From a virus, in the IMG/VR virus record IMGVR_UViG_3300029258_003546, positions 16,000-79,999 of that record: a stretch of 64,000 nucleotides of DNA; one strand, written 5' to 3'. Of this stretch, positions 1,869-52,938 are shown piece by piece (positions within the stretch are counted from its first letter, which is position 1; every line of letters starts with the position of its first letter). The notes below the pieces were generated by a model. That model searched no databases. It was given only the letters and a program-made list of their open reading frames with translations, and was not told where the DNA came from. The translations under genes and the position numbers were made by a program.

Positions 1869-2156
1869 ATGGAGATTGATTTGATTATACCCGGTGAAAT
1901 GTGGCATAGTAGCCTGTCTGGTTGTACATGCAGCCACGGCTGTGTCACTAGATCCAATACTCTATGTTCATCGTTTTATCCTGACTTGTCAGCAAGTACT
2001 CATTTGTCGACAAGTCGCTGCCATATGATTGCTTACACCAACTCAGTAGTAGGTGCAGGATTTTATCCGCTCTCGCATAAACAAGCAAGGTCGTACGTAT
2101 CACTGGCAGAGGAAGATTCTGTTTCAGGTTCACACGCATCATCCTGGTCAAGATGA
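1869..2156 (+). CDS. Small Ser/Arg/Cys-rich family protein
   Basis: Ser-rich with SxS motifs; ends SGSHASSWSR. Confidence 0.5.
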   Translation: MEIDLIIPGEMWHSSLSGCTCSHGCVTRSNTLCSSFYPDLSASTHLSTSRCHMIAYTNSVVGAGFYPLSHKQARSYVSLAEEDSVSGSHASSWSR

Positions 2157-2168
2157 AGGAGGTAGATA

Positions 2169-3731
2169 ATGGCGGAACGCGGCGACATGCTGCCGTATTT
2201 CAATGCCGGAGCGCCGGCGTTGGCTGTGCAAACGATGGAAGAGGCGCCCCTTATTATGTGGCTGTTAGCCAATACGAACTATGAAACGTATTGGCGTAAG
2301 TCTGCGATGCCTGGCATTGAAATTCTGGCGGAACGCGCAGGAACAGCCAGCAGGAAATCCAAGCTAGGCCAGCACAAGATGCTGGATGCTAAGGCGGACG
2401 TGGTTACCACTCTGCAGAAGCTTCGAGGCCAGCGGCGGACTGCGCTTATCCTTGAAGATTTTGCTGATATGGCAACGATGGCGTTGCCGCGACGTGCATT
2501 GATGGACGGACTGTACGAGTACTCGTCCACGGGAAGCGTTGTTATTATGGTGGCCCCGCGCTGGAGGCTGCCTGCCGAGTTGCAGCATCTTATTCCCGTA
2601 ATAGACTGGTTACTACCAAAGCGGGATGAAATGGAAGGGATTCTTGACAAGGTAGAGATGTATCTATCTGCTGCCAAGGATAAGAAAGCCAAGACCAAAA
2701 CAAGCTTCAGTGTTCCTGAAGAGCGAAGACCTAATATCATCGACAGCATGATGGGTCTCGGCACTATGGAAGCTGAAAACAGTTTGTGCATGGCTGCGCG
2801 TATGACTGATCTTCAGACTATACACCCAGAGGATGTATTCAAGCTGAAAGCCAAAAGGCTGAAAGAGCAGGGCTTGTTGGATTATCAACCTCCAGTTTCG
2901 GTGAATAATATGGGCGGTTTGGGTAATCTTAAGGAGTACTTCAAAACAGAGGTTATTCCGCGTAAGCGCCACGCTAAATTGCGAGTACGCGGTCTTCTCT
3001 TGGTGGGTGTTCCTGGTACAGGTAAGTCTCTAGCTGCCAAGGTGGCAGGTTCCATATTGGAACGTCCTGTTTTTCATATGCAGATCGGCAGGCTGAAAGG
3101 TTCGTACGTGGGCCAGTCAGAGGCCAATATGGCTCGGGCGCTAGAAGTCGCTAACGCCATGCCGTGTGTGTTGTGGATGGATGAGATAGAGAAAGCTCTA
3201 GGAGGTGTTGCGTCCTCCAACATGACGGATGGCGGTACGCTGGACGCTATGTTCGGCATGTTGCTGACTTGGTTATCGGATCATAACGAGAACGCAATGG
3301 TTGTGGCAACATGCAATAACTTCTCCAAGCTGGAAATCGAGCTAACGCGTAAGGGCCGATTCGACGAGATATTCTTCGTCGACCTGCCCACGCTTATCGA
3401 GCGTGAGGAAATAGCAGCTGTGCACCTGGCCAGACTAGACTGTCCTGTCGAGCTGGCGCAGCAGATATCTGAGCTGACAGAAACGTTTACCGGTGCAGAG
3501 ATAGAGCATCTAGTAAAATCCCTGGCTACGGCCCAGCTACGCGGCGAGGAAGTAAAGCCTGGGACTAAGAAGACGGACAAGCTCCTCTTGGGGCTGAAAG
3601 ACGCGTGCAGGCCTTTGGCCGAAACGCGCGCGGAAGAGATTGGTCAGCTTCGTGCGTGGGCTAGTCGCACAGCGCAACCAGCCAATACGCCCGAAGCTCA
3701 CGTACAGTTGGAAAGGGAGTTGCTGGAATGA
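2169..3731 (+). CDS. AAA+ ATPase, Ycf46-like
   Basis: Walker A GVPGTGKS, Walker B LWMDEIEK, RKGRFDEIFFVDLP; SD aggagg. Confidence 0.9.
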   Translation: MAERGDMLPYFNAGAPALAVQTMEEAPLIMWLLANTNYETYWRKSAMPGIEILAERAGTASRKSKLGQHKMLDAKADVVTTLQKLRGQRRTALILEDFADMATMALPRRALMDGLYEYSSTGSVVIMVAPRWRLPAELQHLIPVIDWLLPKRDEMEGILDKVEMYLSAAKDKKAKTKTSFSVPEERRPNIIDSMMGLGTMEAENSLCMAARMTDLQTIHPEDVFKLKAKRLKEQGLLDYQPPVSVNNMGGLGNLKEYFKTEVIPRKRHAKLRVRGLLLVGVPGTGKSLAAKVAGSILERPVFHMQIGRLKGSYVGQSEANMARALEVANAMPCVLWMDEIEKALGGVASSNMTDGGTLDAMFGMLLTWLSDHNENAMVVATCNNFSKLEIELTRKGRFDEIFFVDLPTLIEREEIAAVHLARLDCPVELAQQISELTETFTGAEIEHLVKSLATAQLRGEEVKPGTKKTDKLLLGLKDACRPLAETRAEEIGQLRAWASRTAQPANTPEAHVQLERELLE

Positions 3732-4246
3732 GCCAGACGACCAAGGTGAAAGTCAATTTCAGGGACCTTGACATGCTGAAGGTTGCCGCAGAAGAACTGG
3801 ACGGCGAGTGTGTTGTCAGAGGCGATCAAGCGGCAGTGAGACTGCCTGGCTGGCATATGGATGCTGTATTGGGAATCAAGGACGGCGTCCTGACAGGAGA
3901 TATGCTCTATGATCGTGATGCCAGCTATTCGGGCATCACGCAGACGCATATGGACAAGCTGGCGATTGAATACGCAATGGCAGCGGCTAACGCCGAGGCG
4001 GTTGCGCATGGATGGCATTTCAACCGCCAAGGCGAAAAGGCCACGATCTCCACGCCGAAGGGGCGTATGGAGATCACGGCGGACGCAAAGGGGAGTATAC
4101 AGGTGGACGGACAGGGCTATTCCGGCACCGCCTGCGCCGGTGAAATAGGCGAGATCGTGGGACAGGTGGGTACTCAGGAGCAAACGCAGTACAAGCAAGA
4201 GTATCATCAGTCCCATACTCGTGTGCGGCAGAGAGAGCAGGGCTAG
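3728..4246 (+). CDS. DUF1257 (Ycf35)-DUF2997-like fusion protein
   Basis: N-part MSQTTKVKVNFRDLDMLKVAAEEL..RLPGW; C-part ITADAKGSIQVDGQGYSGTAC...KQEYH; ATGA overlap with the AAA gene. Confidence 0.6.
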   Translation: MSQTTKVKVNFRDLDMLKVAAEELDGECVVRGDQAAVRLPGWHMDAVLGIKDGVLTGDMLYDRDASYSGITQTHMDKLAIEYAMAAANAEAVAHGWHFNRQGEKATISTPKGRMEITADAKGSIQVDGQGYSGTACAGEIGEIVGQVGTQEQTQYKQEYHQSHTRVRQREQG

Positions 4247-4251
4247 CATTC

Positions 4252-4265
4252 TGCTAGTCCTAGCA
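4252..4265. promoter_or_regulatory. Palindromic motif TGCTAG-TC-CTAGCA, copy 1
   Basis: Seen directly; 8 copies in the window. Confidence 0.6.
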
Positions 4266-4269
4266 TTTT

Positions 4270-4323: not shown

Positions 4324-4548
4324 ATGCCTCATAGGCGATGCGCGACCTGCAACGTGCTGTGCAACGTGCTGTGCAACGGTAAGTGCGCAGTGATGGCCGT
4401 GCCGTGCTTCCCGCGCAAAGCGCGCAAAGGAAGCAAGGACATCAGAGTCATGCCTACGGCGCTGTCGGTAGGCATGGGCTTTATCGGAGGAATTCACGAG
4501 TCTCCTGAGTTCATCACTCAGGACTCGCTGGAGTCCTTTCAACAGTAG
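4324..4548 (+). CDS. Hypothetical Cys-rich protein
   Basis: SD aggagg; 12-bp tandem repeat encodes CNVL x2. Confidence 0.45.
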   Translation: MPHRRCATCNVLCNVLCNGKCAVMAVPCFPRKARKGSKDIRVMPTALSVGMGFIGGIHESPEFITQDSLESFQQ

Positions 4549-4610
4549 TTGCCAGCGAAACGGCAGGCCTGCCACATTGGCAGGTCTGCCATTTGCACAG
4601 GAGGAGCAAC

Positions 4611-5270
4611 ATGACGACCACGTACCGTGTGTATGTGCCCGAGGCGAAAGAGCTGTTTCCAACGTGGATAGACGAACAAGGCGGCATTTTGGTATGGAAC
4701 AATTGCGACATGTCGGACCCTGGGCGTGAGAACGCTTTTACGCCGGCGCTGGACGAGGACGGAAACGACAATGCAGCAAATCCTCCACGGTGGAATTACA
4801 AGTTGGGAGAGCGTGTTGACAGCCTGGCGCGTTTTCAGATATGCACGCGCAAGCTTATAGTAGCGATATTGGATGTAGAGTTGTTGCGTCAGGGCTCGTC
4901 CAGACCTAGACTGGTATTGTCGAAAGAATCAGAATGTCGCATATACTCGGCTCGCAACATCGTTGCCGAGATCTATGGAACGGATGAAGTAAAGTGGTCG
5001 TCTGGTGATATCATATATCCTGCAGTTACATTATACGTTTTCGAATTCGAGGACAAGCCTTTGCGTGCCGTGTGGACGTCAGGGTCTGTCAAACGTATCA
5101 CAGATTACGCACTCGATGAATGTTGTGAGGCGGAATCGCTGGTACTAGAAAAAGACGGCAGATTCGTAATACAGCTGTTCGATCTAAAACCTGAGCAGCT
5201 TGGCGACATCACTGCTACGTTGAAGGAACGGCTGCTAGGGTGCGATTTCACAATGGAGAGCATGGAATGA
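4611..5270 (+). CDS. Hypothetical protein
   Basis: ~220 aa ORF; SD aggagg. Confidence 0.7.
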   Translation: MTTTYRVYVPEAKELFPTWIDEQGGILVWNNCDMSDPGRENAFTPALDEDGNDNAANPPRWNYKLGERVDSLARFQICTRKLIVAILDVELLRQGSSRPRLVLSKESECRIYSARNIVAEIYGTDEVKWSSGDIIYPAVTLYVFEFEDKPLRAVWTSGSVKRITDYALDECCEAESLVLEKDGRFVIQLFDLKPEQLGDITATLKERLLGCDFTMESME

Positions 5271-5584
5271 GAAATGAGTACACGATTGAGTCTATGCAGG
5301 AGCGTCTGGCGGATGGTCCAACGGAAGCCGACATGTTGAGGCAGGCTTACGCTGCGCAGGATGCGTGTAATTTATCAGGAGTAGTGCATACATTTTCGTC
5401 GCTTGTGACGCAGCTGTGGAAAATAGCTAGAGCACGAGGTAAAGGCACAGACTGGGTAAACCGCCATCCCGTATGCATTATTTTAGCTGACAAGCTGAGA
5501 GATTTGTCTCGCAGCACGTCGGATCGAGTGTTCTCTGTATTTGAGCAGGCGAGAATCTTGAAAGAGCGGAAATGCAGTACCTGA
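5267..5584 (+). CDS. Hypothetical phage protein
   Basis: AQDACNLSGVVH...TDWVNRHPV motif; ATGA overlap. Confidence 0.65.
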   Translation: MRNEYTIESMQERLADGPTEADMLRQAYAAQDACNLSGVVHTFSSLVTQLWKIARARGKGTDWVNRHPVCIILADKLRDLSRSTSDRVFSVFEQARILKERKCST

Positions 5585-5817
5585 ATCTGTCGTTGGATAC
5601 GGTTGTTGGATCAAGTACTTGCGGACGTGCGTACTCTACGTCGACAATGTACCGCTCAGGTGTAGATTTCCGGGGCTTACTACCGTTGCCGGCTTCTAAT
5701 TCGTACAGCTTACATCTCAGATCAGTCGTGTACATGGGTGCCAGTCGATATGGAAATGTGGTAATTCATAGACATACTTTTGGTTCCAAAACCGATCATG
5801 CTAGACGTAGCAAGTGA
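5572..5817 (+). CDS. Small Ser/Arg-rich family protein
   Basis: Composition; tiles between its neighbours. Confidence 0.5.
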   Translation: MQYLNLSLDTVVGSSTCGRAYSTSTMYRSGVDFRGLLPLPASNSYSLHLRSVVYMGASRYGNVVIHRHTFGSKTDHARRSK

Positions 5818-6077
5818 AAGACGAGGAGTATGAAAATATGGATAATCACGCTATTGAGTTCAAGGTTGGTAGCGGTGATTGGGAATTTTGGGCGTGGTTC
5901 GACGGCGCGCGTCGCGAAGCTTGCGTAGCCGCTGCCCGACTGCACGAATCGTTACGTGTGGATGAAGGTCATACCCGCGTATCGGTACGCGTAAACGGTC
6001 GAAGACTGACATGCACAACAATCAATGATTGTCTGAAAGGAGATGCACATGAAGGACATGAAGGATCCCGCAGCTGA
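5814..6077 (+). CDS. Hypothetical protein
   Basis: Coupled ORF. Confidence 0.55.
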   Translation: MKDEEYENMDNHAIEFKVGSGDWEFWAWFDGARREACVAAARLHESLRVDEGHTRVSVRVNGRRLTCTTINDCLKGDAHEGHEGSRS

Positions 6078-6771
6078 ATTCGGTACCTTGCTAAAGCAGT
6101 GTGTGACGCCGGACGGTCTAGGATCTATAGTGCTGGCTGTAGATACTACGAGCGTGAAGCCTGACAGGCAGATATTAAAGGTGTCTGCTCTGTGGCTTGC
6201 CAGGCACTCGGCCACAGAGGCTAGATTTACAGTTGACGAGTTGCCGGAAGCTGTAACTACGTATACAGGAATTGCAAAGGAGCATTTGCCTGAACAGTCA
6301 GAAACTGACGAGGCCAAGAGCATTGTATATCAGCTGGTTACTGCGGAAAGAATCATAGGCCATGCGCTTGTTTTTACGCTTCAATCACTGGCAAGTATAG
6401 AAGGTGTCTGCGACGATTTTCCGGCATTCATGGAAGGCATCAAAGCCCTCACGGATAAAAAGGCTGCGATAGCAGATCTGACACACGGATTTCCCAAGCT
6501 AGTTGATATCGGCATGCTGGCTAAGCTTGCTACATGCACAGATGATCGGTTCAAAGCGTACGGAGACGCGCTTGATAGCTGGACTACGGTGCAGGCTCTT
6601 AATCGGAAAAGTGGCGGAGGCGCCAAGTGGAACTTCGAGATCTGCTGCGAGATGGCTGGTCTGGCTACTCCTGTACGCCCGTACGACTGCTCGACAAAGG
6701 TGAAACTGATTTCTGACATCATAGCGCGCACAGGTTTGGGCAAGCCCAGCCTCAATCTTGTAGGAAGATAA
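6043..6771 (+). CDS. Degenerate DnaQ/DEDD exonuclease-like protein
   Basis: LAVDTTS (cf. DxETTG), YTGI, IIGHALVFT (cf. GHNxxFD); catalytic acids appear lost. Confidence 0.4.
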   Translation: MHMKDMKDPAAEFGTLLKQCVTPDGLGSIVLAVDTTSVKPDRQILKVSALWLARHSATEARFTVDELPEAVTTYTGIAKEHLPEQSETDEAKSIVYQLVTAERIIGHALVFTLQSLASIEGVCDDFPAFMEGIKALTDKKAAIADLTHGFPKLVDIGMLAKLATCTDDRFKAYGDALDSWTTVQALNRKSGGGAKWNFEICCEMAGLATPVRPYDCSTKVKLISDIIARTGLGKPSLNLVGR

Positions 6772-6772
6772 A

Positions 6773-7051
6773 ATGCAGATGCTGCCTTCTATTTCGGTGC
6801 TAAGCGTTTGCAGGCGCGTTATCCCTATGTACTACGTGTCAACGTGTCAAGTTGGCGACACGAACGTTCGTGTCGTAGGCTCTAGATGCAGTAGACGCAT
6901 TAGCGGCAGTCACGGCGTAGTTATGACTGGTAACTATAACAAGCGGGTTAGATCCTGTGCAGGCTGGCTGGGTCGGCACTGGTACAACAGTGAAAGAGTA
7001 GAGCGCAGGTATCTAGTAAGTGCTGGGTCCACACAACGCCGAGGTCGATGA
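6773..7051 (+). CDS. Small Ser/Arg/Cys-rich family protein
   Basis: Composition; tandem cluster 6773-8237. Confidence 0.55.
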   Translation: MQMLPSISVLSVCRRVIPMYYVSTCQVGDTNVRVVGSRCSRRISGSHGVVMTGNYNKRVRSCAGWLGRHWYNSERVERRYLVSAGSTQRRGR

Positions 7052-7052
7052 T

Positions 7053-7379
7053 ATGAATTCGGTTATGAAAAGGGCAGGTTTGGAAGTAGTTGTTATATCT
7101 AAAAATTCTGCATACGACAGTGTGTCGTTGAGCCAGGCAGGTAGGTACATGCTGCGTACCGGATATTCAGTGTCGTCGTACCTTATCGACGCTAGTCCTG
7201 AGTCCAGACTAATAAACGACTGCCAGTCGATTGATACCAAACAGACGCGCCGTCCTCGTATATGGCGTAATTATAGTGGACTAGGCCGTTGCACAACCAG
7301 AAGCCTGGACGGGCGTACGGTGTCTGTATATTTCTCGCGCGCGCGGAGTTGGATAGCGACAAGGATTCGGATGCATTGA
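7053..7379 (+). CDS. Small Ser/Arg-rich family protein
   Basis: MNSVMKRAGLE leader; SD gaggt. Confidence 0.6.
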   Translation: MNSVMKRAGLEVVVISKNSAYDSVSLSQAGRYMLRTGYSVSSYLIDASPESRLINDCQSIDTKQTRRPRIWRNYSGLGRCTTRSLDGRTVSVYFSRARSWIATRIRMH

Positions 7380-7684
7380 ATGCGGCGATTGGTAGAACAG
7401 GTCTAGAGGCGTCTGTAGGAGCTAAGAAGATTATACATGCAGCCAAGTCGTTATGTTGTTGTGGAAAGTTCAAGACGCCTTGTGCTACCTCAGCTTCGGC
7501 TTATATAGGTCGACGAGAGACTCTGTTCAGCGCATACAGAAGGTTAATAGCTGTTCATTCAGTAGATGACAATTACCGCTGTCGTCCGGCGCTGAGATAC
7601 CGGAAACGTCAGGACTGTAGTGTATGTAGAGGCGCTATGCGTTTAGGCTTAGGTATTACGCGCTTTTCATTGATACAACACTAG
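7376..7684 (+). CDS. Small Ser/Arg/Cys-rich family protein
   Basis: (M)NAAIGRTGLE leader; TTGA overlap. Confidence 0.6.
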   Translation: MNAAIGRTGLEASVGAKKIIHAAKSLCCCGKFKTPCATSASAYIGRRETLFSAYRRLIAVHSVDDNYRCRPALRYRKRQDCSVCRGAMRLGLGITRFSLIQH

Positions 7685-7719
7685 TAATTGGGCACATCAG
7701 AGTGCGATGCTGAAGGAGA

Positions 7720-8004
7720 ATGCAGATGCTGGCAGCTGCGCTACGAGGAGGAATGGAAGCAGCGTATGTGACCTGGATGTCGGAATATAAAACAAAATCG
7801 AGTTCTATAGGGAGTAACCTATACGTTGTGTCGTCTAGCTGCAAGTCTCGTCACAATCATCTAGTCATTTCGTGCACGAAACGTAGTAATAACAGAGTGT
7901 ATTCGACCGTTCGCACTGATTGGGAACGACCTAAGCCGGGTTGTGCCTGGACAGCGTCGGTAGCTAACTGGAGACGTTTTTCTCAGACGAGGTACTACGC
8001 ATGA
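7720..8004 (+). CDS. Small Ser/Arg-rich family protein
   Basis: MLAAALRGGME leader; SD aaggag. Confidence 0.6.
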   Translation: MQMLAAALRGGMEAAYVTWMSEYKTKSSSIGSNLYVVSSSCKSRHNHLVISCTKRSNNRVYSTVRTDWERPKPGCAWTASVANWRRFSQTRYYA

Positions 8005-8237
8005 TAGCGACGCTGGTAGCTTTTCGCTGTGAGCCTGCTACCGGGCCGCAGTGTGTCTGCAGAAACGGGACGAGAACCATAGCATGCAGCTGGGCTTGTA
8101 CTGGGGAGCAAAAAGCGTTAGCGATTTCTTATAGAGGATCTATTACTGGTCGATTTGCTGATTATAAAGCGCCTACAGTTTCCAAATGCGCTAGACGGCG
8201 TAGTTCAAACAGCCGCATTAACGTGTCTTCACGCTAG
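8001..8237 (+). CDS. Small Ser/Arg/Cys-rich family protein
   Basis: ATGA overlap; SD gaggt. Confidence 0.55.
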   Translation: MIATLVAFRCEPATGPQCVCRNGTRTIACSWACTGEQKALAISYRGSITGRFADYKAPTVSKCARRRSSNSRINVSSR

Positions 8238-15846: not shown

Positions 15847-15848
15847 CT

Positions 15849-16351: not shown

Positions 16352-16576
16352 ATGTTGTACGCGTGGACAGAGGTGCCTGTACGGCAGACGAGAACAAGCA
16401 GAACGCAAGGATTTCTCATAAGCAGCTCTCGTACACGAGTTTCTAGCTTATGCAGTTCCGGCACGAGGGGAAAGATTTCGGCATCCCTGTCAAGATATCA
16501 TTATGGGCCGGAATGGCTAAGCTATGTGGTTCGCAGTTCAACTGGCACGCTCTTATATAGCCAACGTACGCGATAG
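16352..16576 (+). CDS. Small Ser/Arg-rich family protein
   Basis: MLYAWT leader; 15 Ser, 10 Arg and 2 acidic residues in 74 aa. Confidence 0.55.
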   Translation: MLYAWTEVPVRQTRTSRTQGFLISSSRTRVSSLCSSGTRGKISASLSRYHYGPEWLSYVVRSSTGTLLYSQRTR

Positions 16577-20523: not shown

Positions 20524-20805
20524 ATGCATGCTGCGCTGCTGCAGAGTAAAAGGCGATACGCGATGTACGGTTCGCAGTACGGAAGCTATTGCAGAAACAG
20601 CCACAGAGCGAGGGCATTCGACAGCTATTGCCGTGTTAAGAATGATCGGCTCATTTGTAAGCGATCGTACATTGCCTCGATGATTTATCGAGATCTGCGC
20701 ATTTCAGCCTCTCTAGCTGTCACTGGTCGTGGTAAATCACTTCGCGGCTCACGAGCAAGGGCGCACGAGATAACGTTTGTCAGCTGTTCGTCGCAAATCT
20801 GCTAG
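20524..20805 (+). CDS. Small Ser/Arg/Tyr-rich family protein
   Basis: MHAALL leader; stop codon lies inside the palindromic motif. Confidence 0.55.
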   Translation: MHAALLQSKRRYAMYGSQYGSYCRNSHRARAFDSYCRVKNDRLICKRSYIASMIYRDLRISASLAVTGRGKSLRGSRARAHEITFVSCSSQIC

Positions 20806-20838: not shown

Positions 20839-21147
20839 GTGGTAGCCGCTATTTTGACAGCTGCATCATGCGTGCACCATACCGAGCACCATACCTGTTT
20901 TGAGATTTACAGCGGTTGCACTTCGAAGTACAACTTCAGTGTACGTACCAGCCGCGTGTATGCGCGCCTCAACCGTTTCCCTGGAGGTTTGATGCCTTTC
21001 AACAGATCTAGAGTCCATATGCCGCATCGAACCTCAAGTTACAGGACGAGTATACGATCTGTGGCAGGGTACGCATCAAACAAACGCGCTATACTTTCCC
21101 ACACCGCGCAGATGTTCGCGTCTATAAGCGAAAAAGGAAAGGAATAG
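20839..21147 (+). CDS. Small Ser/Arg/His-rich family protein
   Basis: MVAAIL leader; SD aaggag. Confidence 0.55.
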   Translation: MVAAILTAASCVHHTEHHTCFEIYSGCTSKYNFSVRTSRVYARLNRFPGGLMPFNRSRVHMPHRTSSYRTSIRSVAGYASNKRAILSHTAQMFASISEKGKE

Positions 21148-37201: not shown

Positions 37202-37507
37202 ATGGCCAACGTGATCCCAGGCCCGCATTTTGTATCTTTCAATAGCAGGTACTGCAAAGAAGCGAGCGTTATCGCTAGACGAGAAGGAGACAGGACTCAC
37301 GCAAGTCATTCTAGCTCGCGGAGAAGGAGGAGCAGGTGTTCCAGCACTTGCGTCCAATACTCTAGCGGCGGCGCCTATTCAATACGCCTCTTTTCCCTGG
37401 CCGGTGCAGGCCGAGTCTGGTCTGTTGCTGCCTCTTCAGCCGCCGGACAGTGTACAAACTGGTATCATTCTTCTATTACAGCAGGCGTGATTCGCTCCGT
37501 AGAATAG
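37202..37507 (+). CDS. Small Ser/Arg-rich family protein
   Basis: SD aggagg; paralog of the ORF at 37538. Confidence 0.6.
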   Translation: MANVIPGPHFVSFNSRYCKEASVIARREGDRTHASHSSSRRRRSRCSSTCVQYSSGGAYSIRLFSLAGAGRVWSVAASSAAGQCTNWYHSSITAGVIRSVE

Positions 37508-37537
37508 CGGAATGGCTAATGGAACAGGAGAACAAGC

Positions 37538-37703
37538 GTGATCTCAGGAGCATTTTTAGTTCTCAGGGCCAGGTGTCGATTCGGCAAAGAAGCGAGCGCT
37601 ATCGTTAGCCGGCCTCTTTTCTCGAACTGACAGGTTACGCGTGAGCCAAGCTCACAGTCTACACGGCCGTCGTCGTGCCGGTTCGAACACCTGGTGGAGA
37701 TAA
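37538..37703 (+). pseudogene. Truncated or frameshifted small-family paralog
   Basis: VISGAFLVLRARCRFGKEASAIVSR; stop at 37630; shares gcaaagaagcgagcg with the previous ORF. Confidence 0.45.
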
Positions 37704-37707
37704 TTCA

Positions 37708-37986: not shown

Positions 37987-38029
37987 AAAGCAAAAGATCG
38001 GCGAACCTACACGTGCAAAGGAGGTCGGA

Positions 38030-38299
38030 ATGGTTGCTGCTGCGCTGGGAGCCTGCGTACATCGAAAGGCGACACGGAATACAAGTCTGCGACGCCGTTT
38101 TGGCTTATCGACGGGATGGGTGGTTTATAAGAGCTCCGTCAGTACCAGAGCAGGCAAGCGTCTAATCAGCTCGGCAGTACGGTACGATTTCGGCCACACA
38201 ACGGCTTTGCTTAGGCGGTCTGTTTCACAACACAGATCATGTACGGCCGGCCCCAGGGCCAGCCATTCAACGACCTGGTATCGGCCCTACTCAGCATGA
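38030..38299 (+). CDS. Small Ser/Arg-rich family protein
   Basis: MVAAALG leader; SD aaggaggt. Confidence 0.6.
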   Translation: MVAAALGACVHRKATRNTSLRRRFGLSTGWVVYKSSVSTRAGKRLISSAVRYDFGHTTALLRRSVSQHRSCTAGPRASHSTTWYRPYSA

Positions 38300-38347
38300 A
38301 ATGTACGACCGAGCTCGTTCTGCATGGTGTCGAGACAGCGTTGATTT

Positions 38348-38361
38348 TGCCAGGACTAGCA
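38348..38361. promoter_or_regulatory. Palindromic motif copy 4 (TGCcAG-GA-CTAGCA, one mismatch)
   Basis: Seen directly. Confidence 0.5.
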
Positions 38362-38390
38362 AAGTTCGGGTCGGCAGAGAGGTGGGTGTC

Positions 38391-38723
38391 ATGGTCGTAG
38401 CTGCAATGAGTACAGCTGCTCGAATCTTTGATTTCAATATCAGTCACTGCTCGGCTCTACAAAAGAGCATAGTGCCGAAGAGTGGATGCTCTGGCGGGCA
38501 GGGTTGGTCTGGTATTTCGGCATCGTCTTGTAAAGCTTCCAGTCGAGTAGTTTACCTCACCACTAGGTTTCACTCTGAAACCGCGTATGTGAGACTGGGA
38601 TTGGCCTCTAGGCTAGTGCGTTTCCAAATCAACTTTTCATCAACTCGGTCGAGTACGGGATATCGCACTGTTTCTATCTCGCCACATTATCATATCCTGT
38701 CTCAATCTCAAGATTCTTGCTAG
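38391..38723 (+). CDS. Small Ser-rich family protein
   Basis: MVVAAMS leader; stop codon inside motif copy 5. Confidence 0.55.
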   Translation: MVVAAMSTAARIFDFNISHCSALQKSIVPKSGCSGGQGWSGISASSCKASSRVVYLTTRFHSETAYVRLGLASRLVRFQINFSSTRSSTGYRTVSISPHYHILSQSQDSC

Positions 38724-39104: not shown

Positions 39105-39362
39105 GTGGTTGTTGTGCAAATCTTAGGGTGCTCGAAGCCGCCCTCGCGTTCGACGTCCAAATCGCGCGGAAGCGATTTTAGATCGTACAACAGATCGTTG
39201 GCTCAGAGTCGCCTCGCGTTTCCAGTGCTCCGCGGTAACGGCTACTCTTTCGGCAAGGCAAGATCGTGGACGAACGTGGCGAAAGGTGCTGCTTACTATT
39301 TCAGGTCTTGCATATCTTGCACACAGAGCTGCTACGAGTCGTACGAAACTAGAAGGGAGTAA
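39105..39362 (+). CDS. Small Ser/Arg-rich family protein
   Basis: SD aggag; SRSTSKSRGS. Confidence 0.55.
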   Translation: MVVVQILGCSKPPSRSTSKSRGSDFRSYNRSLAQSRLAFPVLRGNGYSFGKARSWTNVAKGAAYYFRSCISCTQSCYESYETRRE

Positions 39363-39366
39363 CAGC

Positions 39367-39684
39367 ATGCAGATTTTTGGAGTGCGGCATGGAGAGCGTC
39401 GGCCTCCATGCGCAAGCGGAATCAAGCGTGAGCGATCAGGTCGTTGTTTTAGCTATGCAAAGTATATTCACACTTCTAGTGGTGGTGGTGCGTTCCCACG
39501 CAGCGCCTGGTCGTCTGCTGTGCACGATGCTCGCGGACGTACATTGCATGAGTCGTCGTCCGGGTGCGCGGGTAGTGGTGGTGATCCACTACGTGCGGGT
39601 GTCAGCTCACGTATTCTTGGCGTATACTGTTCGTACACAAAGGATCCTCCTTCGTTTGGCCGCTACCGTGTAGCCAGAGTCTGA
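39367..39684 (+). CDS. Small Ser/Arg/Gly-rich family protein
   Basis: SD gggag. Confidence 0.55.
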   Translation: MQIFGVRHGERRPPCASGIKRERSGRCFSYAKYIHTSSGGGAFPRSAWSSAVHDARGRTLHESSSGCAGSGGDPLRAGVSSRILGVYCSYTKDPPSFGRYRVARV

Positions 39685-39702
39685 TTTCAAATTCAGCCAG
39701 GT

Positions 39703-39960
39703 ATGGAGTACGTCAGCATGATTTTGCTTGGACGTGTATCGGCAGCGTATATGAATTATGAAGGTCACACCTCGACATTTTGTAGCGGCTGGTCGAGCTG
39801 CCGTCTGAACACCTGCTCGTGGTGCGCCTGGAGCCGGCATTCGGCGGCTCAAAGTTCCAGCGGATACAGACGTGGAAGGCTTTTCTATACGTACAGGCGC
39901 GCTTCGGCCTCAGCTGCAGAGTCAGGACGCAGGATGTGTCAGGCTTCTGCGAATTCCTAG
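39703..39960 (+). CDS. Small Ser/Arg/Cys-rich family protein
   Basis: CSGWSSC..CSWCAWSR. Confidence 0.55.
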   Translation: MEYVSMILLGRVSAAYMNYEGHTSTFCSGWSSCRLNTCSWCAWSRHSAAQSSSGYRRGRLFYTYRRASASAAESGRRMCQASANS

Positions 39961-39990
39961 TAGGAAGAGTTCGGTAGGTGGAGACAGCGC

Positions 39991-40218
39991 ATGAATGCGT
40001 GTGTTGCCGTTGTTGGGCGTTCGGATTGGCGTTATGTACGTTTGCATAGCTGGAGAAGGTATTTGTCGGGCGCGAACAAAGTAAGCCGGATCTATGAGTG
40101 GTACAAGGACACACACTGTAGGCGTTCGTCAGCGGATTGCGCATACGCGTCTAAGAGCGGCGGCTCTGCCTGGTCTTCTACGCAGGAGCTGCAGTGTTCA
40201 GGGTTACTAGGTGAGTAA
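39991..40218 (+). CDS. Small Ser/Arg-rich family protein
   Basis: MNACVAVVG leader; SD ggag. Confidence 0.55.
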   Translation: MNACVAVVGRSDWRYVRLHSWRRYLSGANKVSRIYEWYKDTHCRRSSADCAYASKSGGSAWSSTQELQCSGLLGE

Positions 40219-40393
40219 AATGATCCCGATTGTTCCGAGGATGGTTTGTCAATTAGGATCTTTTGTTAACGGGTACAGAGTTGTTAGTTTTACCGGTGCC
40301 CGGAGCAAGAAATATCTTATCCAGTCTACCAGTGCGTGTGGTGCGTACAAATACGTGGATCACTCTACAGAATCAGCAGATTACAGGTGGTAG
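40211..40393 (+). CDS. Small family protein
   Basis: Overlap coupling. Confidence 0.45.
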   Translation: MSKMIPIVPRMVCQLGSFVNGYRVVSFTGARSKKYLIQSTSACGAYKYVDHSTESADYRW

Positions 40394-40430
40394 AGGGGGT
40401 TGCGATGTGTCGTCACCGGAGGAGCTTCAG

Positions 40431-40649
40431 ATGATCGCATTGCTGGCGGGTTTTCACAGCAAGTCGATTTACGAGACGTCGTTACGCGTTTCCAGCACAG
40501 ACACGTTGTTCGGATCAACGTCTTGGTTTTATTACAGGTCTGGTTCTCGCATGGCTGCCGGGGAGCTAAGGCATTTATCACTGTCCGGCCTGCAATCCAG
40601 GCCGCCTATTTTCAAATCTCGGTCATACGGGCGTGCGTATTCAAACTGA
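40431..40649 (+). CDS. Small Ser/Arg-rich family protein
   Basis: SD ggagga. Confidence 0.55.
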   Translation: MIALLAGFHSKSIYETSLRVSSTDTLFGSTSWFYYRSGSRMAAGELRHLSLSGLQSRPPIFKSRSYGRAYSN

Positions 40650-40668
40650 GCAGGGTTTGGAGAGTGTT

Positions 40669-40929
40669 GTGTTTAATACAGCGATGTTGTTTAACAGGCG
40701 ACAGGTGGGTCGGTCAAGATCATACGGATGGTGTGATAGTGGGATACAAAGAGATATACGAACCTGGGGTTCCGGCGCCACGACTAGAACTGACAGCCAC
40801 AAAATACGGTCCCGATCCTTTGGTCGAGTACGAGGACAGTTTTACGTCTATGCGATACCTACTTCTACATCTCGTTCTAACTATAGGGGCAAAAATAGGG
40901 CTGTGTACAGCAGCCGGGTGTCGCGGTGA
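40669..40929 (+). CDS. Small Ser/Arg-rich family protein
   Basis: GRSRSYG, RSRSFG, STSRS motifs. Confidence 0.55.
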   Translation: MFNTAMLFNRRQVGRSRSYGWCDSGIQRDIRTWGSGATTRTDSHKIRSRSFGRVRGQFYVYAIPTSTSRSNYRGKNRAVYSSRVSR

Positions 40930-40938
40930 GGTGCTAGG

Positions 40939-41175
40939 ATGAATGCTGTTATGTTGAAGCATACTGGTCATGCGTTGTGGCGTGTCAGTACGTCAAGGCA
41001 CTGTGCTGTCAGCGCCAGGCGGTCGTACGTTTGTCTAGACTATGGTACGCATTACGGAGGACTTATAGCTCGGTTCTCAGTGTCGGTGACTTGTAGCGGA
41101 ACGTGGCCTTTTTTCAGATCGATAGGTGCTACGTACGGGTGCTCTTTTGCTGACATGTCCATGATGCAGCTGTGA
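40939..41175 (+). CDS. Small Ser/Arg-rich family protein
   Basis: MNAVMLKHTG leader; SD gaggt. Confidence 0.6.
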   Translation: MNAVMLKHTGHALWRVSTSRHCAVSARRSYVCLDYGTHYGGLIARFSVSVTCSGTWPFFRSIGATYGCSFADMSMMQL

Positions 41176-41193
41176 GCTGACAAGGAGGCCCGC

Positions 41194-41391
41194 ATGCTTT
41201 TGTTCAACAGGACGAATGTGATTACTACCAGGCTAGTCATAAGCCAGAACTTGAACTACGAGTCTACTAGCGGCGGTCAATCATGTTTGTGCGACTATAG
41301 TTGTTCTGAAGATGGCAGGCTTCATGGTGTTGTGTGCAGCAGAAGCTGTACAGGCGACGGCACTCGTCACTGGATATCGGTTGATGGCTGA
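41194..41391 (+). CDS. Small Ser/Cys-rich family protein
   Basis: SD aaggagg. Confidence 0.55.
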   Translation: MLLFNRTNVITTRLVISQNLNYESTSGGQSCLCDYSCSEDGRLHGVVCSRSCTGDGTRHWISVDG

Positions 41392-44364: not shown

Positions 44365-44543
44365 TCAAGCTATCTATTGCTACCTGTGTGAAGAATCGGT
44401 TTTCCTACTTCCAGCAGATGGTGAGGTTCATCGACGAAGCGGATCAGCGGGTGATAAGGGAACGCAGCTCTGGACTCGTGCACATGTGGCATGATCCTGC
44501 TAGAGCGGCTAAAGACAAGTACTATCGTGGAGGGATTAGGTAG
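44361..44543 (+). pseudogene. Internally deleted GT2 paralog
   Basis: VIKLSIATCVKNRF..DEADQ joined directly to ..GLVHMWH..YYRGG. Confidence 0.65.
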
Positions 44544-46342
44544 TGTTCTTCATTGTTACAGCGTGCAGGGATTGTGCTAAGTTTTTGCCGGAATGTGTGG
44601 GTAGTGTGTTGAAGCAGCGCCGTATTGACTGGCGGATGTGCATAGCGGTTGACGATGTTGGAAGTGATGTTGGCGCTGCTACTCTGCGCGTAGCGCGAAA
44701 ATTGGCGGAGCAATCACCACGGATATTAGTGATTTCTAACCAGGACAGGCTGCATGCGCTGCGGACACGCGTGGACGCGATCGACAGATTTTGCCCACAC
44801 GATGCTATAGTAGTAAAGCTGGATGGAGATGATTACCTCTATGACAGCGAAGTATTGTCGGTACTGGCCAAAGAGTATACTGATCCGGAGATGGATGCGG
44901 TATGGACGCAGTTCGTAACCGTGGCTGGAAAGAAGGGGTTTTGTGGGCCTCTCCCGGAAAATGCTAATCCCGCTTCCCACAAATGGGTCTCGTCACACTT
45001 ACAGACGTTTCGTAAGCGTGCGTTGTGGGGGGTGAGGCGAGAATGCTTTGTCGATAATGCTGGCAAATGGTGGTCTCATGCTACTGATCAGGCGCTATAC
45101 TTGCCTATCCTAGCGGTTGCGCGCAAGAGGAGGTTCGTCGATAAGGTTTGCTACGTGTACCGGGTTCGTGGGACTGACAATACTCGCGCTGCGCAGAATA
45201 AGACGGCTGCGGAGATACGCAGCAAGATTAAAACTTCATTGGTCTTTGCCAGAAAAAACGTATTATTTATGATAAGCGGACCAGGGAGGGCGAGGGACGC
45301 GCGCCTCTACTACAACGAGAAGCGGCCGTTTCTCGGCGTGTTGAACATGTCGTCGCATTTGCGCGCTAGAGGGCATCGTGTTCGGTTGGTTGACAGGCAC
45401 CTGAAACCAGCTTGGTTCCCGTCTGACGAGATCTTGTTGGACTGGGCTGACATAGTCGGGATATACATCTCTACTCCTGCTAAAAATGACGGATGTGCGC
45501 TGATCAAGGATGTCAGGGATAAGGGTTTCGGCGGACCTGTGTATACTGGTGGGCCGCATAGTGTGCTGCATCCAGAAGCGGTCAGGTCTGCCGGTGCTGA
45601 TTTTGTGAGTACATTTGAGGCTGACTATGCAATATCTCGGCTAGTAGAAACAGGGAGTGCTGCTCCCTCCGGCAAGAGGGTGCTCGATCTAGACAGCTTG
45701 CCGTTTCCTGACTATGCGTTGGTGAAGGAGCAAGGGCTCTCTTATACAGCCAAGTGGCCGTATGACGGTACAGCCCCCGTGATGAGTCTCAACTCATCAC
45801 GCAGCTGTCCATATAGCTGCGCATTTTGCGAGACGCGTAGGATATGGGGCAGGGAGTGGTACGCACAGAGTCCACAGAGGATGCTGCTGGATGCGGATTA
45901 TATGTATCGGAAGTACCGGCCCAAGGGAATTTACTACAGGGAATCGAATTTTGGTTGTAATCGAACTAGGGTGACCATGTTCTGCGACTTACTCAAAAAG
46001 CACGGGCCAGATGTGAGGTGGGCCTGTGAAATACGTGCCGACAGGGTGTGCGATGAGTCTTTGGTATCTAAGATGTCTGAGGCCGGTTGTAGGGGGTTTT
46101 ATATTGGGGCCGAGGCTGCGACTGATAGGTTGCTTAAGCAGATGAATAAAGGCATTACTGTGGCGCAGATTCGCAAGGCCTGTAAGAATGCGTCCAAGTA
46201 CGGGGTGAAGGTAGCCTTGAGTTTTGTGACGGACTTTCCTGGGGAGACGCAGGAGGATATCAAGGCCCGGGCTGTTCTGATCAAGGGTGTGCAGAAAGCG
46301 GTACACTGGTGCAATAAGTACCGTGCTACGTCTGATTTCTAG
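44543..46342 (+). CDS. GT2 domain fused to a B12-binding radical SAM domain
   Basis: GT2 VDD.GSD, KLDGDD, SHLQTFR; GGPH; SRSCPYSCAFC; IGAEA; FPGET. Confidence 0.85.
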   Translation: MFFIVTACRDCAKFLPECVGSVLKQRRIDWRMCIAVDDVGSDVGAATLRVARKLAEQSPRILVISNQDRLHALRTRVDAIDRFCPHDAIVVKLDGDDYLYDSEVLSVLAKEYTDPEMDAVWTQFVTVAGKKGFCGPLPENANPASHKWVSSHLQTFRKRALWGVRRECFVDNAGKWWSHATDQALYLPILAVARKRRFVDKVCYVYRVRGTDNTRAAQNKTAAEIRSKIKTSLVFARKNVLFMISGPGRARDARLYYNEKRPFLGVLNMSSHLRARGHRVRLVDRHLKPAWFPSDEILLDWADIVGIYISTPAKNDGCALIKDVRDKGFGGPVYTGGPHSVLHPEAVRSAGADFVSTFEADYAISRLVETGSAAPSGKRVLDLDSLPFPDYALVKEQGLSYTAKWPYDGTAPVMSLNSSRSCPYSCAFCETRRIWGREWYAQSPQRMLLDADYMYRKYRPKGIYYRESNFGCNRTRVTMFCDLLKKHGPDVRWACEIRADRVCDESLVSKMSEAGCRGFYIGAEAATDRLLKQMNKGITVAQIRKACKNASKYGVKVALSFVTDFPGETQEDIKARAVLIKGVQKAVHWCNKYRATSDF

Positions 46343-51134: not shown

Positions 51135-51428
51135 ATGCTAAGTGTCGTGCTGGGTGTAGGCGCTCTGACTGGTCCGTCTGCTGCTTCAGCTTCTGGCGCA
51201 GGCTGGATGGGGCCGCCTGTGACGAGACGGGCGTCGTTTACCAGAAGTTGGACTCCAATGTCCGGTAGTATTACGTGGGATCGAAGGCGTCCGCTGGATT
51301 CTTTTGCTAGCGGCGGTACCGGCTGCTTAAAAAAGGTGAGCCGAGTAGCATCAGTTAAAGCTCCTCACTGGAGATCTGATGATGTTCCGGGTCAGCAGTA
51401 CGGGGTAGGAAGGTCGAGGCAGCCATGA
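51135..51428 (+). CDS. Small Ser/Gly/Arg-rich family protein
   Basis: Hydrophobic leader plus composition. Confidence 0.45.
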   Translation: MLSVVLGVGALTGPSAASASGAGWMGPPVTRRASFTRSWTPMSGSITWDRRRPLDSFASGGTGCLKKVSRVASVKAPHWRSDDVPGQQYGVGRSRQP

Positions 51429-52168
51429 GACCACGATGGGTAGAAGTATCAGGCGGCGCGTTGAAAGGTTGTTATCTACATATCGATCCGTCTGTTCATT
51501 GGATGGGGGCTATGGCCCGCGGTGAGTACGATCCCTATATCTATCAGTGTCTGGAGGGTACGGATCTTACTGGCTGTGTAGCGTGGGATGTAGGAGCGCA
51601 TATTGGTTATCACACCTTGTCGTTTGCCGTGCTGGTAGGAGCCACCGGCCAGGTCCACGCATTCGAACCAGTTCCATATAACTCGAATCGTATCTTCCGT
51701 CATCTGGAGCGGAACAGCGAGTTGAAGTCCAGGGTTCGTATACACGAGTTTCCTCTGGCAGATTGTCAGGGCAGTGCGGTGCTAAGGTACGACCCGCGCG
51801 GTGCTGATGGCGGTACTGCTATGGGCGCTTACTTGACGACGGCAAAACCTCCACGTAACGGGGGTCAGCCTAAGTTCAAACCGCTCAAGGTGAATACTAC
51901 CAGTGGCGATATCCTGATTGCGAAAGGCAGGGTGCCGCGTCCCGATATAATAAAGGTCGACGTGGAGGGCGCTGAAGGCCTAGTTCTGCGAGGAATGGTA
52001 GGGCTTCTTGCTGCCCAGCATCCGGCACATCTGTTTATCGAAATCCATAATGTGACTGCGATGTTCGACGTTATGGATGTTCTGTACACTTGCGGCTATG
52101 CGCCGGTGTTGATGCATGCAGCATCGGTATCTCGGTGTTTCCTGCATGCTGAAGTTAAGCTCTGCTAG
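51425..52168 (+). CDS. FkbM family methyltransferase
   Basis: WDVGAHIGYHT, AFEP, IKVDVEGAE, IEIH. Confidence 0.9.
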   Translation: MRPRWVEVSGGALKGCYLHIDPSVHWMGAMARGEYDPYIYQCLEGTDLTGCVAWDVGAHIGYHTLSFAVLVGATGQVHAFEPVPYNSNRIFRHLERNSELKSRVRIHEFPLADCQGSAVLRYDPRGADGGTAMGAYLTTAKPPRNGGQPKFKPLKVNTTSGDILIAKGRVPRPDIIKVDVEGAEGLVLRGMVGLLAAQHPAHLFIEIHNVTAMFDVMDVLYTCGYAPVLMHAASVSRCFLHAEVKLC

Positions 52169-52211
52169 GGTGGCGTGAGTAGGTCGCTGCTGCTGCGTCT
52201 TTGAAAGTGAG

Positions 52212-52466
52212 GTGTCTATGGTGGCGGCAGGTTTCTGCATATGCGTCCGCGAAACGTCGCGGTGTTGCTCAAGGAAGAGGCCCAGAACCCACGCGAGGAC
52301 CGATAATCGAGGTACTAGTAAGGCAGGCAGTCGATCAAAGAGGCGGGCTCTATCAGTCAGCCTTGTTCGGTGCGCCCTCTACGCTAGGAGTTATGGGAGT
52401 TATAGGAGTCATATAAGGCACGCTGGTAGCATCAGCTGGTGTTCTAGTACTAAGTTGGAGGACTAA
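52212..52466 (+). CDS. Small Ser/Arg/Cys-rich family protein
   Basis: MVAAGF leader; SD gaggt. Confidence 0.55.
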   Translation: MSMVAAGFCICVRETSRCCSRKRPRTHARTDNRGTSKAGSRSKRRALSVSLVRCALYARSYGSYRSHIRHAGSISWCSSTKLED

Positions 52467-52468
52467 CA

Positions 52469-52666
52469 ATGCTGTTTTGGCGCTTCATACCTCTGAGCAA
52501 GATCAGCGCATCTGATTCTAGTAGGTGTCACAGGCGCGAATCTTCCACACGCGGTTGGTGTACCAGCAGGCTCGGCAGTAGGCGGCATCTGTACCGTAAG
52601 AGGTCCTGGACGGGCACAGCGGGCGGGTCCGGCCGCTACAGATCGAGATCGAAGGGTTGCCCGTGA
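52469..52666 (+). CDS. Small Ser/Arg-rich family protein
   Basis: SD ggagga; YRSRSKG. Confidence 0.55.
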   Translation: MLFWRFIPLSKISASDSSRCHRRESSTRGWCTSRLGSRRHLYRKRSWTGTAGGSGRYRSRSKGCP

Positions 52667-52938
52667 TAGCTCAAATCGGATGTTGCGCTGTTTTTTCTTT
52701 TCATTCTAGCTGTGGTCGCAGGGGTACCACCGCGAACTATCGATCTTGGTGCCAGTTTGTTTGCACCAGCGTAGCTGCAGGGGCCATCGGCTATGATTTT
52801 GAATCACCAGTCATGCAAGTTCACGACGCGGCGAGCTGCAGCGTTCTATCAGCGGGACGTTCTAGCGTGGACTGGAAGGACCGGACGGACAAGTTCTGGA
52901 CCACCAAGGAACTCAAGGAAATCGTGGATCCAGTGTAG
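52663..52938 (+). CDS. Small Ser/Cys-rich family protein
   Basis: GTGA overlap. Confidence 0.45.
   Translation: MIAQIGCCAVFSFHSSCGRRGTTANYRSWCQFVCTSVAAGAIGYDFESPVMQVHDAASCSVLSAGRSSVDWKDRTDKFWTTKELKEIVDPV

Follow-up and report, generated by a model that had tools for sequence, protein, structure and literature searches.

Eukaryotic Sm proteins (SmB, SmD1 and SmD3), LSm4 and the SR proteins carry low-complexity tails of the Arg-Gly, Arg-Ser and RGG types, and a composition of Arg/Tyr stickers with Ser/Gly spacers is typical of RNA-binding, condensate-forming regions. Small proteins with a predicted LSm-like fold are found in phages as well, where GoF, MotB.1 and Frd.2 of the Tevenvirinae are suspected of acting on RNA (PMC12152347). 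Here we describe a 64-kb stretch of DNA of an uncultured marine jumbo phage (the window; bases 16000–79999 of the 80-kb IMG/VR virus fragment IMGVR_UViG_3300029258_003546), which encodes a Sm-like protein at positions 442–831 and, between its ordinary genes, 38 small open reading frames (ORFs) of 65–110 codons, rich in Ser and Arg and all on the + strand. The small ORFs occupy ~11 kb, about a sixth (~17%) of the window. In other phages the Sm-like gene is usually followed by a single gene for a peptide in which Ser alternates with other residues, hereafter the Ser-X gene. We favor, with fair but far from full confidence, the reading that the small ORFs are a real, fast-diverging and expanded microprotein family that arose from this Sm-associated Ser-X gene. 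The 442–831 family differs in sequence from the Tevenvirinae LSm-like proteins, for which the published abstract mentions no coupled repeat-peptide gene (PMC12152347). That phages encode LSm-like proteins is already documented for T4 (PMC12152347); what is new is the largest and most degenerate Ser-X expansion among the loci surveyed, uncoupled from the Sm-like gene. Literature searches found no description of the pair of Sm-like gene and Ser-X gene.

The structural case for the partner protein comes from prediction. AlphaFold2, run with 58 sequences, models residues 42–129 of the 442–831 protein with a predicted local distance difference test score (pLDDT) of about 97, with a helix at the N-terminus and, behind it, a strongly bent beta-sheet of five strands. 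Nearly all of the top 40 Foldseek matches are Sm/LSm chains, with E-values of only 2e-3 to 2e-2. The archaeal SmAP 1i8f superimposes with a TM-score of 0.75–0.78 and a root-mean-square deviation of 1.5 Å; over 77 columns the deviation from archaeal SmAP is 1.3–1.6 Å. The predicted fold of the protein is thus Sm/LSm, as the original prediction had proposed. Sequence models do not detect it: no Pfam family, LSM included, matched the protein at E≤1 or any of 58 homologues at E≤0.01. Homologues are widespread, with 1365 representative clusters at E≤1e-3 in public genomes and metagenomes.

We surveyed 80 IMG/VR loci with a homologue of 442–831, 73 of which have room downstream. Of these 73, 66 have a Ser-X ORF immediately behind the homologue, the two genes most often overlapping at ATGA, so that the arrangement described in the original prediction (the Sm-like family followed by one MNAA..R.G.. 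Ser-X gene) is borne out. The Ser-X gene consists of a leader, with the consensus M-N/T-A/Q-A-[IVL]-[LM]-R-x-G-[FYLW]-[DE], and a body of (Ser-Arg/Gly/Trp)n encoded by tandem hexamer repeats. At loci L087–L165 these hexamer arrays are open in three frames, which read Ser-X, Gly-Arg or Val/Ala/Gly, and therefore a naive longest-ORF call often takes the wrong frame; the conserved leader and the ATGA overlap belong to the Ser-X frame. In the window, the position of the Ser-X gene is occupied by a 68-aa ordinary-looking ORF with a strong Shine-Dalgarno (SD) site (952–1158) and by 1067–1468, which has several CxxC pairs and is zinc-ribbon-like.

Comparison of the window with this gene pair shows both kinship and distance. 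The Sm-fold partner family is present, the family leader occurs in three window ORFs, the bodies combine a basic, acid-poor character with a high Ser content in which Ser favors every second position, and the genes are arranged like operons, with SD sites and overlapping stops and starts. Unlike the pair, the window has ~38 genes instead of one (12–13 in the largest other expansions surveyed), with bodies of 60–100 non-repetitive residues rather than hexamer repeats; in these bodies Tyr and Cys stand out but Trp does not, 35 of the 38 have a degenerate leader, and none is coupled to the Sm-like gene. The likeness to eukaryotic Sm/LSm/SR tails is one of arrangement, in that an Sm-fold core would be associated with basic, Ser/Gly-spaced, Arg-rich disordered sequence. 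The phage tail would be a separate gene product, whereas the eukaryotic tail is a fused C-terminus, and there is no sequence homology between them.

That the small ORFs are translated genes is suggested first by their open frames. The original prediction listed about 40 of them in tandem clusters and singletons, and we count 38 at the positions it gave (Table 1); for the last, small ORFs do lie in that region, but the proposed frame (52657–52938) is only an alternative to 52793–52996 and neither is clearly of the class. In the 11.3 kb of small-ORF DNA, the + strand holds 57 open stretches of at least 60 codons, compared with 26.2 ± 3.7 in dinucleotide-preserving shuffles. The summed open codons number 5409 (2093 ± 293 in shuffles; z about 11). 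Stop triplets on this strand number 399 (530 ± 15 in shuffles); this is roughly what one fully open frame across three quarters of the DNA yields. Open frames on the - strand of the same DNA are near expectation, weakly raised.

The signals for translation are also confined to one strand. We took the first ATG of every open stretch, which avoids the analyst's choice of starts. Pairing with the anti-SD sequence averages -6.1 kcal/mol on the + strand, where 73% of these ATGs are at or below -5, and -1.7 kcal/mol for the - strand stretches, where 6% are (p 3e-5). Successive small ORFs are mostly -4 to ~+35 nt apart, an operon-like spacing with ATGA and TAATG overlaps; the strong SD sites and the coupling proposed earlier are both present. 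The best reading of these sequence data is that the small ORFs are real, translated genes of one compositional class.

The shared composition of the class is extreme. The proteins contain 16.1% Ser, 12.5% Arg, 5.3% Tyr, 4.3% Cys, 5.6% Leu, 2.6% Pro and 4.7% Asp+Glu; for random codons matched in base composition the expectation is 9.5% Ser and 9.6% Leu. Leu, Pro and the two acidic residues are depleted, and the net charge is +5 to +15 in most, in agreement with the basic, acid-poor bodies described earlier; the example then singled out, 16352–16576, is exact in its length and residue counts (Table 1). In-frame Ser codons are enriched in both the TCN and the AGY families (AGC 1.77-fold, TCT 1.85-fold, TCG 1.53-fold). 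These families are unrelated, which argues for selection on the residue and not on a nucleotide motif. A leave-one-out codon model that ignores stops ranks the ORF's own frame best of six in 36 of 38 cases, and the score that divides this codon class from the typical one is bimodal over all + strand ORFs of the genome.

Two further regularities concern the order of residues. Residues 2–7 are hydrophobic, with a mean Kyte-Doolittle value of +1.09 compared with -0.57 for the bodies (p 6e-10); ordinary-gene N-termini give -0.50, and stretches after an internal Met give -0.88. Within the bodies, Ser at lags 1 and 3 is under-represented (z about -3) and even lags are favored. The even-minus-odd statistic has a z of 4.2, which none of 5000 shuffles reaches; the bias is visible individually in 25 of 38 small ORFs, and ordinary genes show none. 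The recurring S-x-S motif of the original prediction thus survives as a statistical trace but not as a visible repeat.

In all other respects the members are barely alignable, as had been claimed. All-against-all BLASTP equals shuffled controls, and BLASTN equals shuffles apart from a regulatory-looking palindrome and one 28-nt duplicate. Pfam and PHROGs matched none of the 38, and ESM Atlas held no usable relatives; its models of the ORFs at 7053 and 25972 have pLDDT values of 0.36 and 0.44. The proteins are probably unfolded, without a stable fold.

The leader links three of the window ORFs to the Ser-X gene. A position-specific scoring matrix (PSSM) built from 36 distinct leaders was scanned over every start codon of the window (2413 starts on the + strand). 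The ORF at 7376 ranks first (14.5), that at 7053 second (6.2), and the start at 7726, within the ORF at 7720, fifth (0.4). The remaining starts score below 1, and the best - strand score is 2.0. All three leaders align to the family without gaps. Every leader quoted in the original prediction is in place, but only these three of 38 have the conserved family leader; the other 35 have a hydrophobic x-A-A-x-L start. As a group, these 35 come closer to leader residues 2–6 (Ala at 3 and 4, Leu at 6, Gly at 9) than do ordinary genes (p 0.015) or shuffled versions of their own N-termini (0/2000).

Relatives were surveyed in the related clade at 80 loci anchored on the terminase. Such small-ORF clusters are missing from most of them; one, G001 (IMGVR_UViG_3300002460_000021), has them. 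G001 is a 98.7-kb fragment with a terminase 35% identical to that of the window, and it carries about 15 ORFs of the class in four clusters on the coding strand. Their composition is nearly identical (Ser 20.8%, Arg 11.2%, Tyr 5.3%, Cys 3.8%, Asp+Glu 3.7%), Ser alternates more strongly (lag 2 z 5.9), and in 13 of 15 the right frame is the one chosen by the codon model that was trained on the window. The Sm-like homologue of G001, at 53% identity, is more conserved than any other shared protein; it lies inside a small-ORF cluster, with an ORF of the class ~70 nt downstream. Adjacent ORFs in G001 are recognizable paralogues (46–48% identity), and the window small ORFs show no resemblance to the G001 ORFs above shuffles.

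Other phages show intermediate expansions of the Ser-X gene. Locus L132 (IMGVR_UViG_3300006919_000075) has at 4357–8065 12 tandem Ser-X genes with a near-identical leader and Cys/Ile-containing tails. Members at L163:4572–7000 have degenerate, non-repeat Ser/Arg/Cys/Tyr/Trp bodies, and L111:2903–4946 has five copies with a different leader.

The origin of the window genes can be pictured from these sequences. The ancestor would be a leader-plus-(Ser-X)n gene, single and translationally coupled behind the Sm/LSm-fold gene as it is in most phages. In this jumbo-phage lineage it would have multiplied by tandem duplication, and the copies, dispersed among the replication genes at eight sites or more, would have diverged rapidly. 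What remained would be the composition, the trace of Ser at every second residue and the hydrophobic start, with the full leader in three copies. Selection may act on composition and architecture and not on sequence, in which case copies would become unalignable quickly. At least three of the small ORFs, and probably all, would then be an expanded and scrambled Ser-X repeat-peptide gene. The evolutionary reading of the original prediction, an expanded and diversified version of that peptide, appears largely right: it is the best reading and the three leaders speak for it, but the leader is degenerate in the other 35 and no copy is coupled to 442–831.

Several observations weigh against this reading. 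The 35 ORFs lack the R7, G9, D/E11 core of the leader (likeness over residues 7–11, p 0.91); common descent of the whole set is therefore not proven, and convergence on one composition is possible. No tandem hexamer repeats were found in the small ORFs, and no body is a strict Ser-X alternation. No member of the class stands behind 442–831, where the next ORF (952–1158) has ordinary codon use and 861–1136 is ambiguous; the nearest leader-bearing ORF is 6 kb away. The small-ORF composition resembles that of the non-coding shadow frames of the phage's ordinary genes (r 0.35–0.45), so composition alone would not prove coding, and a crude version of the codon model gives similar scores to spurious ORFs that lie within real genes. 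Members at 37202–38299, 40431–40929 and 52793–52996 are ambiguous owing to other open or more ordinary frames. Among the sequencing runs listed, the phage occurs in four DNA runs and in no RNA run. The Logan assemblies of these four runs differ from each other by 1 single-nucleotide polymorphism in 20 kb; this leaves no within-population variation for gauging selection, and the hypervariability proposed for the genes is not apparent at the level of the population.

As to function, a tentative possibility is that these polycationic chains, with Arg/Tyr stickers spaced by Ser, bind RNA through their bulk properties, as interchangeable low-complexity tails supplied in trans to the Sm-like ring. 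The peptides would bind the Sm-like protein by the leader and supply basic low-complexity tails for RNA binding, a proposal that stems from the near-universal coupling elsewhere, the conserved leader and the Sm fold. More doubtful is the stronger version, a combinatorial library of ~40 interchangeable disordered tails that join one Sm-like ring via the leader to give RNA-binding or condensate-forming particles of differing specificity. Speculative, too, are the suggestions of the original prediction that the leader docks on the Sm-like partner and that the peptides serve as decoys, as nucleic-acid or receptor binders or as substrates for modification. Complex prediction with residues 40–129 of the Sm-like protein and the first 40 residues of ORF 7376 returned a score of 0.00, which gives no verdict either way.

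The absence of homologues, of a predicted fold and of mutual similarity is also what one expects if the products are translated but unimportant, either as young proto-genes or as spacer kept open, perhaps as a means of holding ribosomes on long early transcripts. Their composition would then be that of stop-purged non-genic sequence; it is indeed close to that of the shadow frames, and many of the codons for Tyr, Cys, Ser and Arg are a single step away from a stop. We judge this unlikely. Stop-purging as the sole source of the composition was rejected on quantitative grounds: the removal of ~4.7% stops cannot lift Ser from 9.5 to 16% or AGC 1.8-fold. Nor would it give the period-2 order of Ser, the position-specific hydrophobic N-termini, the same composition and phase in a phage with a terminase only 35% identical, or three leaders of the canonical type, from a family that is conserved across many phages.

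It is similarly improbable that the proteins act independently of the Sm-like protein, whether as protamine-like DNA-condensing polycations, as internal head proteins with a cleavable targeting leader, or as decoys or inhibitors of host defence. The Arg/Ser/Tyr/Cys composition and the charge of +5 to +15 are protamine-like, but Arg makes up only 12.5%, compared with 50% or more in protamines. The G-L-E or G-M-E at leader residues 9–11 resembles the x-x-Glu sites cut by the prohead proteases of T4 and phiKZ; this motif occurs in three of the 38 ORFs only, Glu at positions 7–15 is not clearly enriched by a hand count, and no prohead protease was identified in the window. The small genes are dispersed away from the Sm-like gene, as autonomy would allow, but their clusters sit amid replication genes and not head genes, and the ancestral gene is coupled to the Sm-like gene in those 66 of 73 other loci.

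We give very little weight to a third alternative, that the regions are non-coding (structured-RNA arrays, regulatory DNA or decayed genes) and the ORFs incidental. A frame-aware Markov model that had learned from 32 long genes gives positive scores to 25 of 25 held-out ordinary genes and negative scores to almost all small ORFs in all six frames, and 37215–38720 frame 2 looks like a decayed ordinary gene; both would suit this alternative. It is opposed by the one-strand excess of ORFs, the SD sites and the frame-locked composition. Moreover, the ARAGORN tRNA scan and Rfam gave no hit, and folding of 120-nt windows (82 windows) has a mean z of -0.22, compared with -0.46 in core genes, and thus no excess over them. 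That ordinary genes have been misread through a reassigned stop, the wrong strand or the wrong frame is hardly credible: large uncultured phages sometimes reassign TAG or TGA, but read-through of TAG, TGA or TAA singly does not fuse the regions into long frames, no hidden frame is ordinary when stops are ignored (frame means -0.03 to -0.09, compared with +0.077 for real genes), and - strand ORFs also score non-ordinary.

Two further systems invite comparison. In large phages, core genes can be separated by blocks of small accessory genes that evolve fast; examples are the hyperplastic regions of T4-like phages and the polymorphic internal-protein locus, whose products are found in virions and share a capsid-targeting leader of ~10 residues that ends in an x-x-Glu prohead-protease site. 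The window resembles these blocks in its many short, lineage-specific genes wedged between replication genes and in a short shared N-terminal signal before variable bodies. Unlike the T4-type genes, which have ordinary codon use and diverse folded products, the window members share one extreme composition, have no predicted folds and form a separate codon class. Prochlorosin-type ribosomally synthesized and post-translationally modified peptides combine many precursors, one leader of ~60 residues, hypervariable cores and one enzyme. The window shares with them a multigene set, a common N-terminal part and a variable Ser/Cys-rich remainder. It differs in the leader (~11 residues, mostly degenerate), the long bodies and the lack of an adjacent lanthionine synthetase or recognition element; the only radical-SAM gene (44543–46342) is 3 kb from the nearest small-ORF cluster. 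A precursor library of this kind was rejected on the leader and because no maturase family lies beside the clusters among the proteins scanned. Short lipoprotein signals (L-x-x-C in some N-termini) were rejected as well, since the leaders fall far short of such signals in length and Cys is frequent along the whole of the proteins.

If the small ORFs are working genes, ~17% of this jumbo-phage region encodes proteins that standard annotation would dismiss as spurious for want of homologues and of a fold and for a "non-coding" composition. The analysis ties them to the pair of Sm-fold and Ser-X genes, which extends over well over a thousand protein clusters, and with an expansion to ~38 copies the selective importance of the peptide partner would be hard to doubt. 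The series from pure repeat through degenerate repeat to non-repetitive body is a natural one and asks which property is selected: charge, Ser spacing or Arg/Tyr content. It also offers a test case for the evolution of a microprotein family in which only composition is conserved. Were the tail-library reading true, the system would be a viral counterpart of Sm/LSm and SR proteins, with core and tail as separate genes and tails that diversify rapidly.

Table 1 Sm-like gene and small ORFs of the window. The score is the class-versus-typical codon score.
Feature	Position	Strand	Remarks
Sm/LSm-fold protein gene (predicted fold), 129 aa	442..831	+	homologues usually have one Ser-X gene behind them
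Ser-rich ORF, 95 aa, singleton	1869..2156	+	score +0.215; 21 Ser; weak SD
S/R-rich ORF, 81 aa, singleton	5572..5817	+	score +0.134; net charge +7
S/R-rich ORF, 92 aa	6773..7051	+	score +0.152; SD+ATG; gene call on 4 contigs
ORF 108 aa, family leader MNSVMKRAGLE	7053..7379	+	leader PSSM 6.2; ESM Atlas pLDDT 0.36
ORF 102 aa, best family leader NAAIGRTGLE	7376..7684	+	TTG start overlaps preceding stop; PSSM 14.5
ORF 94 aa, weaker leader MLAAALRGGME from second ATG 7726	7720..8004	+	PSSM 0.4; score +0.147
S/R/C-rich ORF, 78 aa	8001..8237	+	ATGA-coupled to preceding ORF; score +0.104
S/R-rich ORF, 77 aa	14844..15077	+	score +0.191; SD+ATG
S/R-rich ORF, 83 aa	15096..15347	+	score +0.168; SD+ATG
S/R/Y-rich ORF, 87 aa	15362..15625	+	score +0.175; SD+ATG
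S/R-rich ORF, 68 aa	16123..16329	+	score +0.208; SD+ATG
S/R-rich ORF, 74 aa	16352..16576	+	15 Ser, 10 Arg, 2 acidic; score +0.209
S/R/C-rich ORF, 85 aa	16602..16859	+	score +0.207; SD before 16602; frame open from 16521, alternative ATG 16524
R/S-rich ORF, 76 aa	16879..17109	+	score +0.153; strong SD; on 4 contigs
S/R-rich ORF, 83 aa	17130..17381	+	score +0.164
S/R/Y-rich ORF, 93 aa, start MHAALL	20524..20805	+	score +0.143; SD+ATG
S/R-rich ORF, 102 aa, GTG start (VAAIL)	20839..21147	+	score +0.118; SD AAGGAG; palindrome 20797 just upstream
S/R-rich ORF, 74 aa	24879..25103	+	score +0.225
ORF 78 aa	25103..25339	+	start overlaps preceding stop; score +0.12
S-rich ORF, 94 aa	25336..25620	+	ATGA-coupled; score +0.05; on 4 contigs
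S/R/Y-rich ORF, 98 aa	25625..25921	+	score +0.113
S/R/C-rich ORF, 81 aa	25972..26217	+	score +0.225; one-residue variant on 34-kb contig; ESM Atlas pLDDT 0.44
S/R-rich ORF, 101 aa, uncertain	37202..37507	+	score +0.177; strong SD; 5' part partly duplicated 330 nt downstream
S/R/C-rich ORF, 92 aa	37708..37986	+	score +0.134; other frames open too
R/S-rich ORF, 89 aa, start MVAAAL, uncertain	38030..38299	+	score +0.05; alternative frames -0.09 to -0.11
S-rich ORF, 110 aa	38391..38723	+	score +0.104; 23 Ser; frame open from 38166
S/R-rich ORF, 85 aa, GTG start	39105..39362	+	score +0.184; directly behind palindrome at 39077
S/R-rich ORF, 105 aa	39367..39684	+	score +0.122
S/R-rich ORF, 85 aa	39703..39960	+	score +0.201
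ORF 75 aa, start MNACVAVVG	39991..40218	+	score +0.078
S-rich ORF, 72 aa, start uncertain	40431..40649	+	score +0.034; 182-codon open frame overlaps
R/S-rich ORF, 81 aa	40684..40929	+	score +0.146
ORF 78 aa, start MNAVMLKHTG	40939..41175	+	score +0.144; on 4 contigs
ORF 65 aa	41194..41391	+	score +0.077; strong SD
S/R/G-rich ORF, 97 aa, singleton, weaker member	51135..51428	+	score +0.06
S/R/C-rich ORF, 82 aa, start MVAAGF	52218..52466	+	score +0.219
S/R-rich ORF, 65 aa	52469..52666	+	score +0.214
Doubtful last member, 67 aa	52793..52996	+	score -0.03; alternative frame 52657–52938 -0.049; neither clearly of class

CheckV estimates the fragment as 41% complete, and the phage is therefore a jumbo phage with a genome of roughly 195 kb. 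Near-identical DNA occurs in four sediment and seawater metagenome runs, and contigs of 169 kb and 34 kb also bear the small genes. The terminase is 32–38% identical to those of a large clade of uncultured phages of ~200 kb, and none nearer than ~38% terminase identity was found by megablast, tblastn and three single-protein searches. The SbcD-like protein had no homologue at E≤1e-10, and a metagenome scan for relatives yielded one 1.6-kb fragment only. By its sequence, the phage is an outlier relative to the terminase clade.

The ordinary genes of the window include an AAA ATPase, the large terminase, an SbcCD-like nuclease and helicases. Another, at 27520–30648, encodes a family A DNA polymerase (PolA) with a uracil-DNA-glycosylase-superfamily domain N-terminal to the 3'-5' exonuclease domain. 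At 44543–46342 a glycosyltransferase family 2 domain is fused to a B12-binding radical SAM domain; upstream of this fusion lie diverged copies of its own 5' end (44195 and 44523, 72%) and a 101-nt repeat (43595 and 44330, 92%).

The cluster at 37202–38723 has irregularities of its own. Positions 37254 and 37584, which are 330 nt from each other, share a 28-nt match, the sole trace of recent duplication within the window. Between 37609 and 37612, each of the four Logan assemblies has ~100 additional nt (66 nt similar to 37280–37345 and 34 others); the window has therefore probably been collapsed within a 330-nt partial tandem duplication (37254–37612). The frame 37215–37487, which overlaps the first ORF of the cluster, has more ordinary codon use (score -0.149). 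Frame 2 of 37215–38720 is nearly open for ~500 codons with only four stops, and the codon use of its pieces is closer to that of ordinary genes than is the case for the called small ORFs; part of the cluster may overlie an ordinary gene that has decayed or been misassembled.

A palindrome, TTGCTAG-NN-CTAGCAA followed by A/T, occurs in nine copies, at 4249, 12120, 20797, 33517, 38347, 38717, 39077, 41417 and 57454. It usually stands 5–30 nt upstream of an SD site and start codon and flanks the 39105–41391 cluster on both sides; it could be a phage promoter, an operator or an RNA processing hairpin.

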